A stretch of DNA of 26,858 bases from Chiloscyllium plagiosum (taxonomy: Eukaryota), in assembly GCF_004010195.1 (NCBI RefSeq), contig NC_057717.1, positions 107,095,474-107,122,331 on the forward strand, written 5' to 3'. A model generated the notes under the pieces. The model was not told the DNA's origin. It saw nothing but the letters and a program-made list of their open reading frames with translations, and searched no databases. The stretch's first letter is position 1, and each line of letters starts with the position of its first letter. Below, one piece after another: positions 4,628-16,363 of this stretch. The position numbers were made by a program, and so were the translations under genes.

Positions 4628-4670
4628 TAATTACATCTGTTTATCAGATGTGAACAAGGGTTTAAATAGA
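4628..4670 (+). promoter_or_regulatory. Candidate RLN3 proximal promoter: TAATTA, paired E-boxes and TATA-like TTTAAATA
   Basis: TAATTA 4628-4633, CATCTG 4634-4639, CAGATG 4645-4650, TTTAAATAGA 4661-4670 about 155 nt upstream of the ATG. There is no upstream ATG between the TATA-like box and 4823. Motif evidence only. Confidence 0.45.
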
Positions 4671-4822
4671 GTGGACTTCAAGCAAGGCAAGCACAGGCTG
4701 TAACCTCATCCCTGGCATTGGGACTCCTCATTCCTGCTCCTCAATCTCTCTTCTTTAGCTCTCAATTCTCCCCTCACTCCTGCATCCTCAGTATCTCAGG
4801 AATAAGAAGGAAAGTCCACGTC

Positions 4823-4997
4823 ATGCTGAGGTTTTGGTTTACTCTGACCCTCTGGCTGGTCATCTCACAGTTTCAACTGGAGGCTGATGCTCGTAAACCT
4901 GTTCTTGGACTGAAACTGTGTGGGAGAGAGTTTATCCGGGCTGTCATTTTCACCTGTGGAGGCTCCAGATGGAAAAGGACAGGAATAAAGACAGCAG
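4823..4997 (+). CDS. RLN3: Relaxin-3-like preprohormone, coding exon 1 (signal peptide, B-chain, start of C-peptide)
   Basis: MLRFWFTLTLWLVISQFQLEADA (hydrophobic signal), RKPVLGLKLCGREFIRAVIFTCGGSRW (B-chain 4892-4972; LCGREFIRAVIFTCGGSRW is the relaxin-3 signature including RxxxRxxI), KR cleavage site; ends at donor CAG|GTAAGA, phase 1. Confidence 0.95.
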
Positions 4998-5060
4998 GTA
5001 AGAGCTGCCAGGCAAGCCTGTGACACTTAGACCCGCGATAGCACATAGCACTGAGTGGAC

Positions 5061-6378
5061 ATACCAGCAGAGGGTTACCTGCTGGTTACCAGACCCGAGA
5101 GGGTTACCTGCTGGTTACCAGATCCTAGTGGGTTACCTGCTGGTTACCATACCCTAGAGGGTTACCTACTGGTTACCAGACCCGAGAGGGTTAACTGCTG
5201 GTTACCCGATCCTAGTGAGTTACCTGCTGGTTACCAGACCCCAGAGGATATCTGCTGGTTACCATATCCTAGTGGGTTACCTGCTGGTTACTATACCCTA
5301 GAAGGTTACCTGCTGGTTACCAGATCCTAGTGGGTTACCTACTGGTTACCAGACCCGAGAGGGTTAACTGCTGGTTACCTGATCCTAGTGAGTTACCTGC
5401 TGGTTACCAGACCCCAGAGGATTATCTGCTGGTTACCAGATCCTAGTGAGTTACCTGCTGGTTACCAGATCCTAGTGGGTTACCTGCTGGTTATCAGATC
5501 CTAGTGAGTTACCTGCTGGATACCAGACCCCAGAGGGTTATCTGCTGGTTACCAGATCCTAGTGAGTTACCTGCTGGTTACCAGACCCCAGAGGATTATC
5601 TGCTGGTTACCAGATCCTAGTGAGTTACCTGCTGGTTACCAGATCCTAGTGGGTTACCTACTGGTTACCAGACCCGAGAGGGTTAACTGCTGGTTACCCG
5701 ATCCTAGTGAGTTACCTGCTGGTTACCAGATCCTAGTGGGTTACCTACTGGTTACCAGACCCGAGAGGGTTAACTGCTGGTTACCCGATCCTAGTGAGTT
5801 ACCTGCTAGTTACCAGACCCCAGAGGATTATCTGCTGGTTACCAGATCCTAGTGAGTTACCTGCTGGTTACCAAATCCTAGTGGGTTACCTGCTGGTTAC
5901 CATACCCTAGAGGGTTACCTGCTGGTTATCAGATCCTAGTGAGTTACCTGCTGGTTACTATACCCTAGAGGGTTACCTGCTGGTTACCAGATCCTAGTTG
6001 GTTACCTACTGGTTACCAGACCCGAGAGGGTTAACTGCTGGTTACCCGATCCTAGTGAGTTACCTGCTGGTTACCAGACCCCAGAGGACTATCTGCTGGT
6101 TACCAGATCCTAGTGAGTTACCTGCTGGTTACCAGATCCTAGTGGGTTACCTGCTGGATACCAGACCCGAAAGGGTTACCTGCTGGTTACCAGATCCTAG
6201 TGAGTTACCTGCTGGATACCAGACCCCATAGGATTATCTAATGGTTACCAGATCCTAGTGGGTTACCTGCTGGTTACCATACCCTAGAGGGTTACCTGCT
6301 GGTTATCAGATCCTAGTGAGTTACCTGCTGGTTACCATACCCCAGAGGATTATCTGCTGGTTATCAGATCCTAGTGGG
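5061..6378. repeat. 29-bp intronic minisatellite (TTACCTGCTGGTTACCAGATCCTAGTGGG)n, ~45 copies with interspersed variant units
   Basis: Direct tandem repeats; 29-aa (3 x 29 nt) periodicity in the overlapping ORFs. Confidence 0.95.
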
Positions 6379-6633
6379 AAGAATGGAAAGGAGAAGTCAG
6401 CAGGATTCCTAAAGGAGCTGTGATCCTCTCACGCTCTGCCTAGCTGCCTGATGCTTATGTTTGTGTGGGCAGAGTGAAATCTCTGCTGACATGAGAGAGA
6501 AATCAAATGTCCAGTGCTCCCTGCAGCTGAATCCAGAGCCCAGGTGGTTCTCAGTCTGTGCTGTTCCAATGAAGGGAACCAACTGGCACTGCTGGGGGGC
6601 TCAGGGTCTGGATGGGACAGTCAAAGTACATTC

Positions 6634-7000
6634 TTTTTCATTCATTCACTCATTCATTCACAGGATGAGGGCATCGCTGGTTGGACCAGCACTACTGCCC
6701 ATCCCTAATTGCCCATAGAGCAGTTAAGCATCAACCTGATTGCTGTGGGTCTGGAGTCACATGTAGGCCAGACCAGGTAAGGATCAAAGTTTCCTTCCCT
6801 GAAGGACAAAAATGAAGCAGATGGGTTTTTCCATCAATCAGCAATGGTTTTGTGGTCATCATTAGATTCCTGAATCCAGGAATCCAGGAATTTTTATTGA
6901 ATTCAAATGTCACAATCTGCCATGGTGGGATTCTATGCAGGTCCCCAGGACATTACCAGGCTCTCTCTATTAACAGTCCAGTGATAAGCCATCACCTCCC
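6634..7000 (-). mobile_element. tRNA-derived SINE with (TGAA)n tail (second shark SINE family; family name not assigned)
   Basis: Minus strand begins GGGAGGTGATGGC... with a partly deleted A box and decayed B box (TAGAATCCCACCATGGCAG), has a body with GGGAAGGAAAC...CCTTACCTGGTCTGGCCTACATGTGACTCCAGACCCACAGCAAT, and ends in an L2-like (TGAA)n tail seen as TTCATTCATTCACTCATTCATTCA on +. Confidence 0.72.
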
Positions 7001-7700
7001 CGAAATCAGGCAGCACTGCCTCAGAATTGTCAATGTTCAATTGCACACTCACTCCAGGCCCGACAATTGTCAATTCTGCTGTGTCAGGACTGATAGCTGC
7101 AATTGAATTAGGGCTCAAGCCCTCTTCACTGGTCTTTGTGAGTCTGTTATTACAAGTTTCCCACGCTGGGTTTTGTGGGGAGATGAGAGGCTGAGCACTG
7201 AAGTCAGTTCATTGCTGTTTTTGAGACCACACATATTTGATATGGGGTCCATGGAGCAGCACTAATGTTTGTAAATAATCCAAAGAGATTCTCAAATGCC
7301 ACTAGAGGAGAAGAACTGGCTGAACAGAACATCTGAATTAAATTATTGTTCGCTGATCCTGTCTGGAACAAGTACAAATGCCATAGAGTTTTTCTCAAAA
7401 CTCCGGCATAACGAGCAGTAAATTTAGCTGGAGGCCCCTCTCCAAATCATTAGCCAGTGATAAAGCCTGTAGAGAAGAGTCTGTGTATATGTTGAGAAGG
7501 TAAAGTCACCTGTGGTTGAACATTCTATCAGCTCTCACTGTCTGGAATCCTCGATGAATAGCAAGCTCAGCTGAGAGGACGAGTGGTTAGGAATCTGTCA
7601 CTGAGGGTGCGGTGTAGCAAATACATTCCTGCATCTCCCGCTGTTCTCCATACTGATTAAGTTGAGACAAATATCAGCCACGATCTAGGTAGAAGTGGCT

Positions 7701-7818
7701 ACTGCGGATGCTGGAGATTAGAGTCAAGATTAGAGTGGTGCTGGAAAAGACAGCAAGTCAGGAAGCATCCGAGGTCCTGCTCCTCAGATGCTGCCTGACC
7801 TGCTGTGCTTTTCTTAGC
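7701..7818. repeat. Short palindromic interspersed repeat (fold-back element, internally deleted)
   Basis: Arms 7740-7774 (GCTGGAAAAGACAGCAAGTCAGGAAGCATCCGAGG) and 7782-7818 (CCTCAGATGCTGCCTGACCTGCTGTGCTTTTCTTAGC) are imperfect reverse complements around a 7-nt loop. Resembles an abundant shark repeat (recall). Confidence 0.65.
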
Positions 7819-7995
7819 TGAAACAGGCTCAATTCGACATGATCTATTGTCAGAGGTCTTCTGGATGTAGTGGAGATAATTTGAGATCCTAAAGACAGAA
7901 ATTCACTGCAAACCAGTATTTAGTTGATTGGAATGTTTGGACAAGATTTAATGATAAGTTTCTGCTTTGTGGGTTATGGTGTGTTTATCTTCTAG

Positions 7996-8270
7996 ATACC
8001 TCTGGGAACTCCGGCTACTTGGAGAAGATGATGAAAGACACCAATTTCAATGGCTGGGCTCTTTCAGAGGATGTCACCATCTCTGAACCAGAGAGTTGGA
8101 GAGTGCTGGTGGGACTGGGGGGAGAGAGCCGAAGTCGGAGAAGCATTTCTGATGATGTACTGGAGACTTTGAGGAGCACCGTTAGGAAGGGGAGGGATGT
8201 GGTGGTAGGCCTGTCCAGTGCTTGTTGTAAATGGGGTTGCACCAAGAGTGAGATCAGCTCACTCTGTTAG
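7996..8270 (+). CDS. RLN3: Relaxin-3-like preprohormone, coding exon 2 (rest of C-peptide, A-chain)
   Basis: (D)TSGNSGYLEKMMK...RSRRSISDDVLETLRSTVRKGR, then DVVVGLSSACCKWGCTKSEISSLC* (A-chain 8196-8267, CC-x3-C-x8-C insulin-family pattern; human RLN3 A-chain is DVLAGLSSSCCKWGCSKSEISSLC); TAG at 8268-8270. Confidence 0.95.
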
Positions 8271-8435
8271 AGTACACCTCGGCATCATCACCAACCTTCT
8301 GTTCACCTCGACGTACAACAGGAACCTGAAGACTGGGTCGAAATGTGCAAATAGTTCTCCTGCCAAGATCTTAGCCCTCACAAATCTCGAAAGCACAGCA
8401 TAAATATCTGTGCATGATACAAGCACAGTGATCAA

Positions 8436-8441
8436 AATAAA
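8436..8441 (+). terminator. Candidate polyadenylation signal of RLN3
   Basis: First AATAAA after the stop codon (165 nt downstream), followed by GT/T-rich sequence (GGATGTTTTG at ~8463). Confidence 0.55.
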
Positions 8442-8750
8442 GACCAGCAATTTGCAGGAAGCGGATGTTTTGCGAGACAGACATTTATTGAAATGTTTAA
8501 TGCTTTGACTCTAGATTAGCTTTTTTTATTAATTTGCCATCAAACATTCATTGTTTTTATTTAAGGTTTCAGTCATAATCTTAATATGTTCACATCGTGT
8601 TTGTACAGTCTGCGTTTCATAAAAAAAAGCTACAGCATCACTACAACTCAAGTCTTATTTGTCAGTGTTCAGGTGGGAGTAATTTGTTCAGTTTCCACTG
8701 TAATGAAAGAATTATTAACCAGTCTCACTGTTCTGTAGTGCAACAGGATT

Positions 8751-9771
8751 GACACACTGCCTCACACTGGGGTACAGTCCTGCACACACTGCCTCACACT
8801 GGGGTACAGCCCTGCACACACTGACTCTCACTGGGGTACAGTCCTGCACACACTGCCTCACACTGGGGTACAGTCCTGCACACACTGCCTCACACTGGGG
8901 TACAGTCCTGCACACACTGCCTCACACTGGGGTACAGTCCTGCACACACTGCCTCACACTGGGGTACAGTCCTGCACACACTGCCTCACACTGGGGTACA
9001 GTCCTGCACACACTGCCTCACACTGGGGTACAGTCCTGCACACACTGCCTCACACTGGGGTACAGTCCTGCACACACTGCCTCACACTGGGGTACAGTCC
9101 TGCACACACTGCCTCACACTGGGGTACAGTCCTGCACACACTGCCTCACACTGGGGTACAGTCCTGCACACACTGCCTCACACTGGGGTACAGTCCTGCA
9201 CACACTGCCTCACACTGGGGTACAGTCCTGCACACACTGCCTCACACTGGGGTACAGTCCTGCACACACTGCCTCACACTGGGGTACAGTCCTGCACACA
9301 CTGCCTCACACTGGGGTACAGTCCTGCACACACTGCCTCACACTGGGGTACAGTCCTGCACACACTGCCTCACACTGGGGTACAGTCCTGCACACACTGC
9401 CTCACACTGGGGTACAGTCCTGCACACACTGCCTCACACTGGGGTACAGTCCTGCACACACTGCCTCACACTGGGGTACAGTCCTGCACACACTGCCTCA
9501 CACTGGGGTACAGTCCTGCACACACTGCCTCACACTGGGGTACAGTCCTGCACACACTGCCTCACACTGGGGTACAGTCCTGCACACACTGCCTCACACT
9601 GGGGTACAGTCCTGCACACACTGCCTCACACTGGGGTACAGTCCTGCACACACTGCCTCACACTGGGGTACAGTCCTGCACACACTGCCTCACACTGGGG
9701 TACAGTCCTGCACACACTGCCTCACACTGGGGTACAGTCCTGCACACACTGCCTCACACTGGGGTACAGCC
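8751..9771. repeat. Near-perfect 32-bp minisatellite (CACTGCCTCACACTGGGGTACAGTCCTGCACA)n, ~32 copies
   Basis: Sequence lines recur exactly every 480 nt (15 x 32); variants only in the first few and last units. Confidence 0.97.
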
Positions 9772-10129: not shown

Positions 10130-13100
10130 AGGTGAACACTGAAAAGGAAGAAAGGGTATGGGTGAAACCCAGATAGAGTAGAGAATGCTAGATAGTGCAG
10201 GAATCCCCTGTAGCTATCTCCCCTCTCCTTTCTAACAGATAGCATGTTATGGATATTGTTGGGGAGGATGTCTATGCAAGGAATGCAGTTGGCAGCCAGC
10301 TTCCTGGCACCATGGGTGAGTCTGCTATGTAGGACAGGAGGAAGAAGAATGGCAGAGCTGCAGTGGTAGGGGATTCAATTGGAAGGAGAACAGGTAAGTG
10401 TTTCTGTGACCGCAAAAGAGATTCCTGGATGGTATTTTGCCTAAAATGTCACTGAATGCTCACAGGGCCAAGGCAAACAGATGATGGTGCATTTCAGTAA
10501 CAATGACATAGGTAGAAAAGTGGGACGAGATCCTGAAAGCTGAATTTAGGGAGCTAGGAAGTAAATTAAAGAACAGGACGCAAAAGCTAGTAATCTCTGG
10601 ATTATTCCCAGTGCCACGTGCAAGTGACTGTCAAAATGAGAAGTTAATCCAGATGAATGCGTAGCTGGAGAGATGGTGCAGGATTTCTGGAACATCAGAA
10701 CTGTTTTAAAGGTTGTTGGGACCTGTACAAGGTGGACAAGTTGTGTTTGAGACAGAACGGGACTAGTGTCCTTGCAGGTAGGTTTGCTTGTGCTGTTGGG
10801 GAGGATTTAAACTAATTTAGTTTGGTTGGTTTGTTGCTTTTCAAAGAGAAGGTTCAGTGGAGGAGCTGATTAGCCAAATTAGAAGAGACAGCAATGATAT
10901 GTTACTTAAGGCACAAGGGAGTTAGGCCGGGTTGAATGGTATTTAATTTAATGCCAGGTGTCTAGCAAATAAAGAGATTAGTTGAGGGCACAAATTTAAA
11001 AATGGGAGTATGATGTCTACACGTTGGGAGAGATCAGCTCCCACAACAGTTTCAGAGAAATAGATGAAGAGCTATGTAGGCAAAGTTTAGGTATTAAAGT
11101 AATAGGGTGAGAATAGGGCATTTCAACTTGCCCAACATTAACTGGCATAGTCAGTGTGTGAAAGGTTTATAACGAAGGGAATTCTTAAAAGGCATCTAGC
11201 AGAGCTGTTTAAGCCAGTGTGTAGAAGGCCGTACATGAGAGAGGGCAGTCCTGGGCTTGGTTTTAGGTGATGAAGGTGGGAAACTGGGTATCAGTGATGA
11301 AGTATTTCACAAACAGCTTTCACAACTCCATTAGACTCAATTGTAACGGACAAGGTCAAGGATGGGCCTGAAATCAAAGTTCTCAACTGGGAGAAAGCTG
11401 ATTTTAATAAGATCAGATATGGTTTGGCCAAAGGGGAATGGGAGCAGATACTACCAGGTAAAGTTGTCTAAGAACATTCAAATTAGGACATCGGGAGAAT
11501 AGAAGGCCATCATGCTACAATAAAGGCAAAGGGTGGAATCATCAAATCCAGTCAACTCTGGATATTGAGGGATGCACAGCATTAGGTTAAGGCAAGGCTC
11601 AAAGTTACTTAAGTCCCAGAGGAGTACAGAATGTGCAAGGGGGAACTTAAAAAGATTAGGAGAGCTAAAAGGGAATATGAAAGGATATTGGGCAGATAAA
11701 ATAAAGAAAAATCCTATACTGTTTTACAGGTACCTTAAGAATAAAAGGATAACAAGGGCAAGAGTCAGGACATTAAGAACTACAGTAGTAATTTCCTGTG
11801 GACGCAGAGGATGTAGGTTCAATTCTAAATGGATACTTTTTGTAAGTGTTCACTAGTGAGAGGAACAATATGGGAATAGAAATCAGGGAGGGAGGTTTGT
11901 GATACAATTAAAGAAATTAGGATATAGAGGAAATTCTCAGTGGTCTGACAGACCTAAAAGTAGATGAACATCCAGGAGCAGATAAAATATATCCCAGGTT
12001 GTTGACTGGGACAAGAGAGGAAACAGCAGGGACACTTGTAAAAGTTTCTATTTCCTCTCAGGCCACAGGAGAAGTGCCAGAGAAGTGAAGGACAGTCAAT
12101 GTGGTACCATAATTCAAGAAGTGAGCAAGGGATTATTGTGATTGCAATGAGGCCAGGCAGGTGGATATCATAGATTGTGAATTCCCTGTTTGGGGCTGAC
12201 AGATAATAAGCAGGAATGTGAGAGGTTCTGTTCACTCTGAGAGCTGGCTCTGAGGGAGCTGGATCAGTGTCAAGGTCTCTCCATGTGTAAATAAAGGGGG
12301 ACATGATGATGGGATTACAGCTTCTCTAGAGTTATTTCAGGAATAAACCAGGAAACCAAAGACTAGTCAGTCTAATTTCAGTAGTGGGGAAACTATTGGA
12401 AGCAATTCTGAGAGACAGAATTCATTTGCATTTGGAGAACAGAGATTAATCAAGAACAGTCATCATGTTTTTTTAAGGGGAGGCCAAGTCTGACCAACCT
12501 GATTAGGTTTTTCAAAGAGGTGACCAGGGCAATGCTTCAGGTATGGTTTACTTGCACTTTAGCAAGGGTTTTGATAAGGTCCCATATGGGAGACGGATAG
12601 CAAAGATAAGAGCTCATGGGATCCAAGGAAATTTGTCCAATGGGATCCAAACTCGGCTGAGTGACAGGAAGCAGAGGATGATGGTTGAGGGATATTTTTC
12701 CGACTGGAAGTTGTGTCCAGTGAAGTCCCACAAGCAGTTAGTATTGGGGTCCTTGTTGTTTGTGGTTGAGATAAGTGACTTAGACTTGAATGCAGGAGGG
12801 TTATCAGTAAGTTTGCATATGATACAAAAATTGGGGGGAGGGTTGGTAAATAGTGAGGAAGATAGCCTTAGACTACATGGGGAGGTAAATGAGCTGGTTA
12901 GATGAGCTGATAAGTAGGAAATGGAGTTTGATCCGTATAAATATGAAGAGATGCACTTGGGCAGGACAAATTACACAAGGGAATGCATGATGAACAGTTG
13001 GACCATGAGAAGCACCGAGAATCTGAGCAAACCTTGATATGGATATACACACCAGTCCCTTAAGATATCAGGACAGTTAGGTAAAGTGGTTAAAGAAGGG

Positions 13101-15863: not shown

Positions 15864-16363
15864 NNNNNNNNNNNNNNNNNNNNNNNNNNNNNNNNNNNNN
15901 NNNNNNNNNNNNNNNNNNNNNNNNNNNNNNNNNNNNNNNNNNNNNNNNNNNNNNNNNNNNNNNNNNNNNNNNNNNNNNNNNNNNNNNNNNNNNNNNNNNN
16001 NNNNNNNNNNNNNNNNNNNNNNNNNNNNNNNNNNNNNNNNNNNNNNNNNNNNNNNNNNNNNNNNNNNNNNNNNNNNNNNNNNNNNNNNNNNNNNNNNNNN
16101 NNNNNNNNNNNNNNNNNNNNNNNNNNNNNNNNNNNNNNNNNNNNNNNNNNNNNNNNNNNNNNNNNNNNNNNNNNNNNNNNNNNNNNNNNNNNNNNNNNNN
16201 NNNNNNNNNNNNNNNNNNNNNNNNNNNNNNNNNNNNNNNNNNNNNNNNNNNNNNNNNNNNNNNNNNNNNNNNNNNNNNNNNNNNNNNNNNNNNNNNNNNN
16301 NNNNNNNNNNNNNNNNNNNNNNNNNNNNNNNNNNNNNNNNNNNNNNNNNNNNNNNNNNNNNNN
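15864..16363. other. Assembly gap (exactly 500 N)
   Basis: Run of N; the round length implies a placeholder of unknown true size. Confidence 0.99.

Follow-up and report, generated by a model that had tools for sequence, protein, structure and literature searches.

The relaxin-3 gene (RLN3) of the shark Chiloscyllium plagiosum raises the question of whether a tandem repeat can govern the splicing of the intron in which it lies. In the window analyzed here, the whole stretch of 26,858 bases, the single intron of RLN3 carries a 29-bp minisatellite whose units are antisense to that intron's own 5′ splice site, and the original prediction was that the array could act as a cis repressor of splicing, tunable by copy number. 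We found that the sequence facts behind this idea are right and that pairing between donor and array is physically plausible. The tests on conservation within the array, on dependence upon copy number, on the effect over controls and on the state of the RNA were each neutral or spoke against a purpose. The reading that we prefer, at a probability of roughly 65%, is that the minisatellite is private and neutral, lies close to the end of a scaffold, owes the match of its unit with the donor to chance, and affects splicing slightly at most. The strongest competitor, which we regard as unlikely but still a serious candidate, is a mask in cis: on the nascent RNA, units of the array would pair with the donor, hold up binding of the U1 snRNP and thereby slow or lower the removal of the intron; RLN3 output would then be trimmed, or some intron-retaining RNA would be made, whether or not this is under selection.

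The gene in the window is a two-exon relaxin-3 on the plus strand, with both chain types in a single precursor. The coding part of exon 1 (4823–4997, plus strand), whose frame opens with the ATG at 4823, encodes the signal peptide, the B chain and the start of the C-peptide, and its final codon is split after one base. The sole intron (4998–7995, plus strand; 2,998 nt, phase 1) begins with GT at 4998 and ends with AG at 7994–7995, the split codon G/AT specifying Asp, and the coding part of exon 2 (7996–8270, plus strand) supplies the remainder of the C-peptide, the A chain and a TAG stop codon at 8268–8270. Genes of the relaxin-3 family have two coding exons and a single phase-1 intron within the C peptide, and the structure found here fits that pattern. 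The best PDB matches were the relaxin-3 B chain for exon 1 (2fhw_B, E 5e-10) and the relaxin-3 A chain for exon 2 (2fhw_A, E 3.6e-8). In addition, a public 149-aa protein, named relaxin-3-like from Chiloscyllium plagiosum, is 100% identical to the exon-1 piece, a D at the junction and the exon-2 piece joined in that order (exon 1 being residues 1–58 and exon 2 residues 60–149), and orthologues named relaxin-3 or relaxin-3a from nine other sharks and rays align with the RLN3 precursor over its full length. The naming rests on these PDB and protein searches, since Pfam, run on the separate exon pieces, gave nothing that passed its cut-off (no match for exon 1, and the Insulin family at E 0.067 for exon 2). 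The chain matches and the public protein confirm that CAGCAG/GTAA, originally taken to be the RLN3 donor, is the exon/intron junction, and because the public gene model has the same junction, this donor is the one used in that model. Were the intron retained, the exon-1 frame would read on to a stop at 5021–5023, giving the B chain plus eight residues. An Rfam search of the 26,858-base window returned no matches.

The donor 10-mer, CAGCAGGTAA, occupies 4992–5001 on the plus strand, with the exon/intron break after 4997. The full donor, CAG/GTAAGA, has eight contiguous matches with the 5′ end of U1 and a mismatch at position +6, and its duplex with the 9-nt U1 end has a computed energy of −11.2 kcal/mol; in cells, this pairing should be stronger still, owing to the proteins of the U1 snRNP and to the cap-proximal position. 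The reverse complement of the donor 10-mer, TTACCTGCTG, is present 26 times in the window, and all 26 copies fall inside the array. The first exact copy lies at 5075–5084 (plus strand), 77 nt past the first intron base, close to the distance of about 75 nt given originally, and an exact count showed the 10-mer to be intact in 26 of the 45 full units, where a hand count had put it in about 25 of some 45. The repeat and the quoted U1 5′ end also have UUACCUG in common. The remaining 19 units carry TTACCTACTG, TTAACTGCTG or TTATCTGCTG, which are the variants named originally, in five units each, or one of four single forms. The exact form yields a 10-bp helix with the donor of −17.3 to −18.2 kcal/mol (−17.3 kcal/mol as a duplex with the donor piece), and the claim that variant units pair less well was borne out for TTAACTGCTG (−10.9 kcal/mol) and TTACCTACTG (−10.6 kcal/mol); units with TTATCTGCTG keep all ten pairs with the donor, one of them a G·U (−14.7 kcal/mol). 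The complementarity is therefore as originally described, and had even been slightly understated. These figures favor a masked donor: 26 perfect units and five with one G·U, among 45, offer a duplex stronger than that of the U1 9-mer, and the strength of this helix is also evidence against a mere chance match.

The array itself (5072–6378, plus strand) begins 74 nt into the intron and makes up 44% of it. TRF reported a period of 29, 45.1 copies, 81% matches and the consensus GGGTTACCTGCTGGTTACCAGATCCTAGT; the units run head to tail and their length is within the 10–100 bp of a minisatellite, and the 45 full units occur in 25 distinct forms. Searches of the 3.56-Gb assembly placed every match within this one array, namely all five of an exact 20-mer of the unit, all 27 of the 29-mer with at most three mismatches and all eight of a 229-base DNA query, the pattern scans being exhaustive for the pattern asked and the DNA search giving lower bounds. 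The satellite was found nowhere else in the 3.56-Gb assembly and had no match on the reverse strand, and a backwards control pattern gave none. The satellite is private to the RLN3 intron in this assembly.

The surroundings are rich in other arrays. Seven arrays span 61.2% of the window, and beyond the window its scaffold, 107,641,581 bases long, continues for 519 kb. Two neighboring 10-kb pieces contained one array (113 nt) and three arrays (693 nt), as against none (period 10–200, at least four copies) in a genome sample made up of one 10-kb piece from the 20-Mb position of each of the 20 longest scaffolds, which amounted to 187,609 non-N bases. The gene thus sits in a local, minisatellite-prone stretch that is probably subterminal, and the richness in minisatellites is a property of the region that is not aimed at RLN3. 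A minisatellite-rich genome was considered as the cause of the coincidence and was rejected, given that the 20 scaffold interiors of 10 kb were free of arrays and the richness is local. The rarity of minisatellites in the sampled interiors also implies that fewer introns genome-wide contain an array than at first assumed, a point that weighs against a chance match.

We next consider how much chance alone would deliver. The array, variants included, offers 272 distinct antisense 10-mers, and over the 9,686 sites of the window that lie outside repeats a single antisense match to the array was seen, that of the donor, compared to 2.5 expected. Some 10-nt match is therefore to be expected somewhere in the window, and only its position at the donor is odd. 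The probability of a match spanning the donor junction is 9 × 42 / 4^10 = 3.6e-4 if only the 42 common 10-mers are counted and 2.3e-3 if any variant is allowed; these nominal odds are low, which argues against coincidence, but they are post hoc, as they concern one finding from a scan of very many windows, and they are further diluted because a shorter match, or one to the acceptor, would likewise have drawn a report. The consensus core of a donor supplies seven of the ten letters of the match. The match stops at 10 nt on both sides, with no 11-nt antisense match (k = 11), and CAGGTAA, 7 nt of the donor, is present in either orientation in a 52-bp array, another of the seven in the window. Coincidence, which the original prediction had entered as a caveat, has become the leading reading.

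If pairing with the donor had been selected, the 10-mer might be better kept than the rest of the unit. Of the 29 10-mer registers that the circularized consensus offers, the donor-antisense register, with its 26 exact copies, ranked only sixth to seventh, the best-kept register being CTGCTGGTTA with 35 exact copies. Two columns of the unit that fall within the donor-antisense 10-mer, 7 and 10, retained the consensus in 32 and 39 of the 45 units, respectively. The two variants that pair worst are always adjacent, and the three-unit block that contains them is present five times, indicating that units without complementarity were copied freely as the array expanded. There is no preferential conservation of the 10-mer and no sign of selection for pairing, which counts against a masking function.

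Folding predictions place the donor in a helix with the array. This was the case in the fold of 4950–5300, in line with the pairing originally proposed, with a predicted minimum free energy (MFE) at z −2.06 relative to shuffles; the partition function paired 4993–4999 with the array at a probability of 0.8–1.0 for RNA ends from 5090 to 5500, and the MFE structure of 4700–5090 paired 5075–5084 with 4993–5001. The predicted pairing probability favors masking and counts against a chance match. Since a perfect 10-bp complement inevitably pairs in folding, we compared the cost that the array adds to opening the U1 site (4995–5003) with a control in which the array was read backwards. Even an RNA that lacks the array is predicted to have its donor mostly paired, as 4994–4999 then pair with a local partner at 5031–5036 (plus strand; MFE of 4700–5060), and before any unit has been made the opening energy of the U1 site is 4.23 kcal/mol. 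With the real array it was 8.01 kcal/mol at an RNA end of 5120, 8.43 at 5300, 5.91 at 5500, 7.14 at 6000 and 7.09 at 6500, compared to 5.12, 4.80, 5.73, 5.41 and 5.37 kcal/mol, respectively, with the array backwards, and 5.49 kcal/mol at 6500 with the array deleted.

The extra opening cost over the backwards control thus ranged from 0.2 to 3.6 kcal/mol and varied with the length folded. It was greatest at 2–8 units (2.9–3.6 kcal/mol) and not with the full array, fell to 0.2 kcal/mol at 15 units and was not monotonic. The upper end of this range favors masking and is a point against coincidence; the cost is, on the other hand, sensitive to context and largest with few units, so that the folding model does not predict tuning by copy number. 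In local folding with span limits of 60–600 nt, the accessibility of the donor decreased by 1.0–2.7-fold. Taken by itself, the array folds well too, at −0.38 to −0.41 kcal/mol per nt. The local pairing that already covers the donor and the lack of a monotonic effect both argue against masking by the array.

Four public runs (tissues unspecified) were compared over 6379–8500, on the 3′ side of the intron, as contigs for X1 and X2 and as reads for X6 and X7. Among the runs listed for the stretch, none was registered as RNA. A contig of 201 letters from X1 fits 7994–8124 with 0 differences, its 70 further letters lying off the stretch, and a contig of 1,758 letters from X2 fits 7994–8500 with 0 differences and beyond that is unlike the intron. 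The fit starts at 7994, two letters before exon 2, because exon 1 and the intron both end in AG. Both contigs part from the genomic sequence precisely at the predicted acceptor, as spliced cDNA must. By contig depth, a rough and poor measure of RNA level, the unique intron contigs of X2 had mean word depths of 10.1, 6.7, 4.4 and 6.26, compared to 95.6 for the exon-2 contig (5–11%), and X1 had depth on exon 2 only and zero on the unique intron bins. The spliced product is therefore present in two runs, and unspliced RNA or DNA carry-over amounts to roughly one tenth of it or less in X2. The two single-cell RNA runs do not bear on RLN3, since in X6 (about 2% read) reads fell on two high-copy repeats only and in X7 (about 6% read) zero reads were placed on 6379–8500. 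A polyadenylation-type signal, AATAAA, occurs in the sequence at 8436–8441 (plus strand), and an X1 contig terminates at 8461, 20 nt 3′ of it, although contigs show neither strand nor ends.

The role of a cis repressor tunable by copy number is thus not supported: the added opening cost is small and unstable (0.2–3.6 kcal/mol) and largest at 2–8 units, the 10-mer is not preferentially conserved, and spliced contigs are found in two runs. The fact that RLN3 is still spliced makes the match look like chance in an ordinary repeat, and it is both the neutrality of the array and the coincidence of its match that we infer. Under the chance reading, slippage and unequal exchange would probably have grown the 29-bp array in a stretch dense in minisatellites, 0.5 Mb short of the scaffold end, and its unit would by chance hold a U1-like heptamer and three more bases complementary to the RLN3 donor. 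The nascent RNA should in principle be able to form the predicted 10-bp helix between donor and array. This helix would add little to the local structure already present over the donor, would gain nothing with copy number and would not prevent removal of the intron. Besides the points already raised, the contig evidence tempers this reading, as the depths are rough, cover the 3′ side of the intron only and come from unspecified tissues.

A delay of U1 by donor masking, without tuning by copy number, draws on timing and on the nature of the donor. Pol II speeds are given as 1–4.6 kb per minute (PMC7404189), at which the first unit would be made about 1–4.5 s after the donor. In murine leukaemia virus, a leader stem-loop is described as restricting the access of U1 to the 5′ splice site, a mismatch at +6 being what makes the site susceptible to attenuation by structure (PMC2794156); the shark donor, CAG/GTAAGA, has the same +6 mismatch, which keeps the masking idea alive and tells against pure coincidence. 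The unique intron contigs of X2, at 5–11% of exon depth, and the stop that the exon-1 frame meets at 5021–5023 would also suit some retention of the intron. Set against these points are the dominance of the spliced form in X2, its being the only form seen in X1, again by contigs, and the lack of a precedent in the literature searched.

A stronger version strikes us as improbable: selection would have made the array a multivalent anti-donor, its dozens of U1-like decoys in cis keeping the RLN3 donor bound in a helix. If it were true, splicing and the share of B-chain-only product would be set by the availability of helicase and U1 and by the units of the allele, and the array would be the first VNTR to act on splicing through base pairing with its own splice site.

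We consider it somewhat more improbable that the array acts otherwise than by pairing with the donor, either as a multivalent platform for RNA-binding proteins or as a DNA-level element in recombination, chromatin or transcription near the promoter-proximal intron. Each unit carries CUGCUGG, which has inside it a YGCY word of the kind bound by MBNL proteins; MBNL binding to the array is a candidate role only. The best-kept register of the unit, CTGCTGGTTA, would be compatible with such a role. Intronic tandem repeats are described as altering splicing through bound proteins or spacing (PMC10078293; PMC5954066). The array is nevertheless private, and the six other arrays around it are unrelated, a pattern that points to a mutational process of the region and not to a device specific to the gene. 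Finally, the unit could share descent with the exon 1/intron junction through an inverted duplication, to which an exact 10-nt inverted match 77 nt away might point; this is very improbable and was rejected, as the similarity is confined to the 10-mer: an 11-nt match is absent, and the flanks of the reverse complement of 4985–5010 agree with the unit, by eye, at 0 of 9 positions on the 5′ side and 1 of 7 on the 3′ side.

Several known systems resemble parts of this arrangement. A closer parallel from cells is the donor of hnRNP A1 exon 7B, which reportedly pairs with a downstream intronic element, CE6, in work from 1997 attributed to Blanchette and Chabot; CE6 has been termed an intronic silencer. 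This and the viral stem-loop (PMC2794156) are what the shark locus most resembles among 5′ splice sites attenuated by structure, with a segment complementary in cis to the donor and, as in the virus, a donor with a +6 mismatch. As described, however, these are single conserved helices with functional proof, whereas the shark partner is 26-fold redundant, private and unconserved, pairs in silico and accompanies a spliced product.

Among repeats, the 37-bp VNTR in intron 7 of human F7 has its first unit across the exon/intron boundary, and its sense units are described as silent pseudo-sites (PMC1557585). Both are minisatellites just past a donor with units related to the 5′ splice site, but the F7 units are sense repeats of the donor, whereas those of the shark are antisense and U1-like and start 74 nt into the intron. 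The 25-bp VNTR in intron 18 of human ABCA7 is likewise an intronic VNTR beside a donor, and its length is reported to correlate with skipping of exon 19 and lower expression (PMC5954066), an effect of length that corresponds to the copy-number-tunable idea. It differs in being a sense array that starts at the donor GT, for which the account given proposes splicing-factor motifs and not base pairing, and in that length polymorphism and its effect were shown for ABCA7, whereas the shark array was read from one assembly. More broadly, intronic tandem repeats near splice junctions, termed spl-TRs, can change splicing in cis, through mechanisms that include TARDBP on TG repeats and branch-site spacing; in the main text of the genome-wide catalogue of these repeats the phrase 'secondary structure' occurs 0 times (PMC10078293). 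The mechanisms given there are protein binding and spacing, whereas the shark array is a candidate for base pairing in silico only.

No repeat antisense to its own splice site was found in the literature searched, and a search for a tandem repeat in a relaxin-3 intron gave only unrelated work. For splicing-active repeats the explanations given so far are protein binding, spacing and additional pseudo-sites, not the masking of the gene's own donor. Should the pairing matter in vivo, a fast-mutating tandem repeat would set the output of a gene by a new route, and repeat alleles would become a heritable control on the level of a neuropeptide. On present evidence the locus serves mainly as a caution: chance can produce an antisense match of 10 nt to a donor close to consensus, RNA folding will always appear to 'confirm' such a match, and conservation or RNA data are needed to give it meaning.

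Two further elements lie in the RLN3 intron downstream of the array, both fragments of high-copy interspersed repeats with no strand assigned. At the first (6663–7017), the summed contig depth in X2 reached up to 2.3 million, with many mismatching reads, and at the second (7657–7869) it reached up to 3.0 million.

The 29-bp array in the intron of RLN3 (relaxin-3) is preceded by a sequence that could itself pair with the first repeat unit. Directly 5′ of the array, ACCAGCAG (5063-5070) is the inverted complement of CTGCTGGT (5079-5086) within unit 1, and the two could form an 8-bp hairpin with an 8-nt loop. By this pairing, ACCAGCAG is predicted to be a local competitor of the splice donor (CAGCAG|GTAA, 4992-5001) for unit 1, and in the folding ensemble of 4700-5090 we found no displacement by this hairpin of the helix between the donor and the antisense 10-mer of the array units.

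The contig that spans the RLN3 splice junction in the public sequencing run X2 (record 16) is 1,758 letters long and fits the window from 7994 to 8500. Its 970 letters beyond the acceptor far exceed the approximately 300 nt expected for exon 1, which hints that the RLN3 transcript extends further at its 5′ end or includes another exon upstream. A candidate TATA-like word, TTTAAATA, lies at 4664-4671, approximately 150 nt upstream of the start codon. At the other end of the contig, 281 letters would extend to approximately 8781, past the AATAAA at 8436-8441, and thus hint that RLN3 transcription reads through beyond its first poly(A) signal. This end point, well 3′ of the AATAAA, falls just within the downstream 32-bp array.

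That array (8752-9769; 31.8 copies) begins approximately 290 nt 3′ of the RLN3 poly(A) signal. Since its units are far more homogeneous than those of the neighbouring arrays (99% identity vs 81-92%), it is probably the product of a very recent expansion. Between the 32-bp and the 52-bp arrays lies an assembly gap, a run of 500 Ns at 15864-16363, and the assembled sizes of both arrays may therefore differ from the true ones.

The window ends only 519 kb short of the end of its 107.6-Mb scaffold, and for this reason the region looks like a subterminal minisatellite zone. In a 188-kb sample of scaffold interiors, no minisatellite arrays were found. Seven arrays with periods of 29-94, unrelated or only loosely related to one another, make up 61.2% of the window (1-26858).

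Two interspersed-repeat fragments also lie inside the RLN3 intron (6663-7017 and 7657-7869), where the summed contig depths reached 10^5-10^6 with many diverged reads in the runs X1, X2 and X6. A search of the window against Rfam found neither a hammerhead nor any other RNA family. Further downstream, the open frames on the plus strand at 11300-12910 read like a putative reverse-transcriptase fragment of a LINE-type element.
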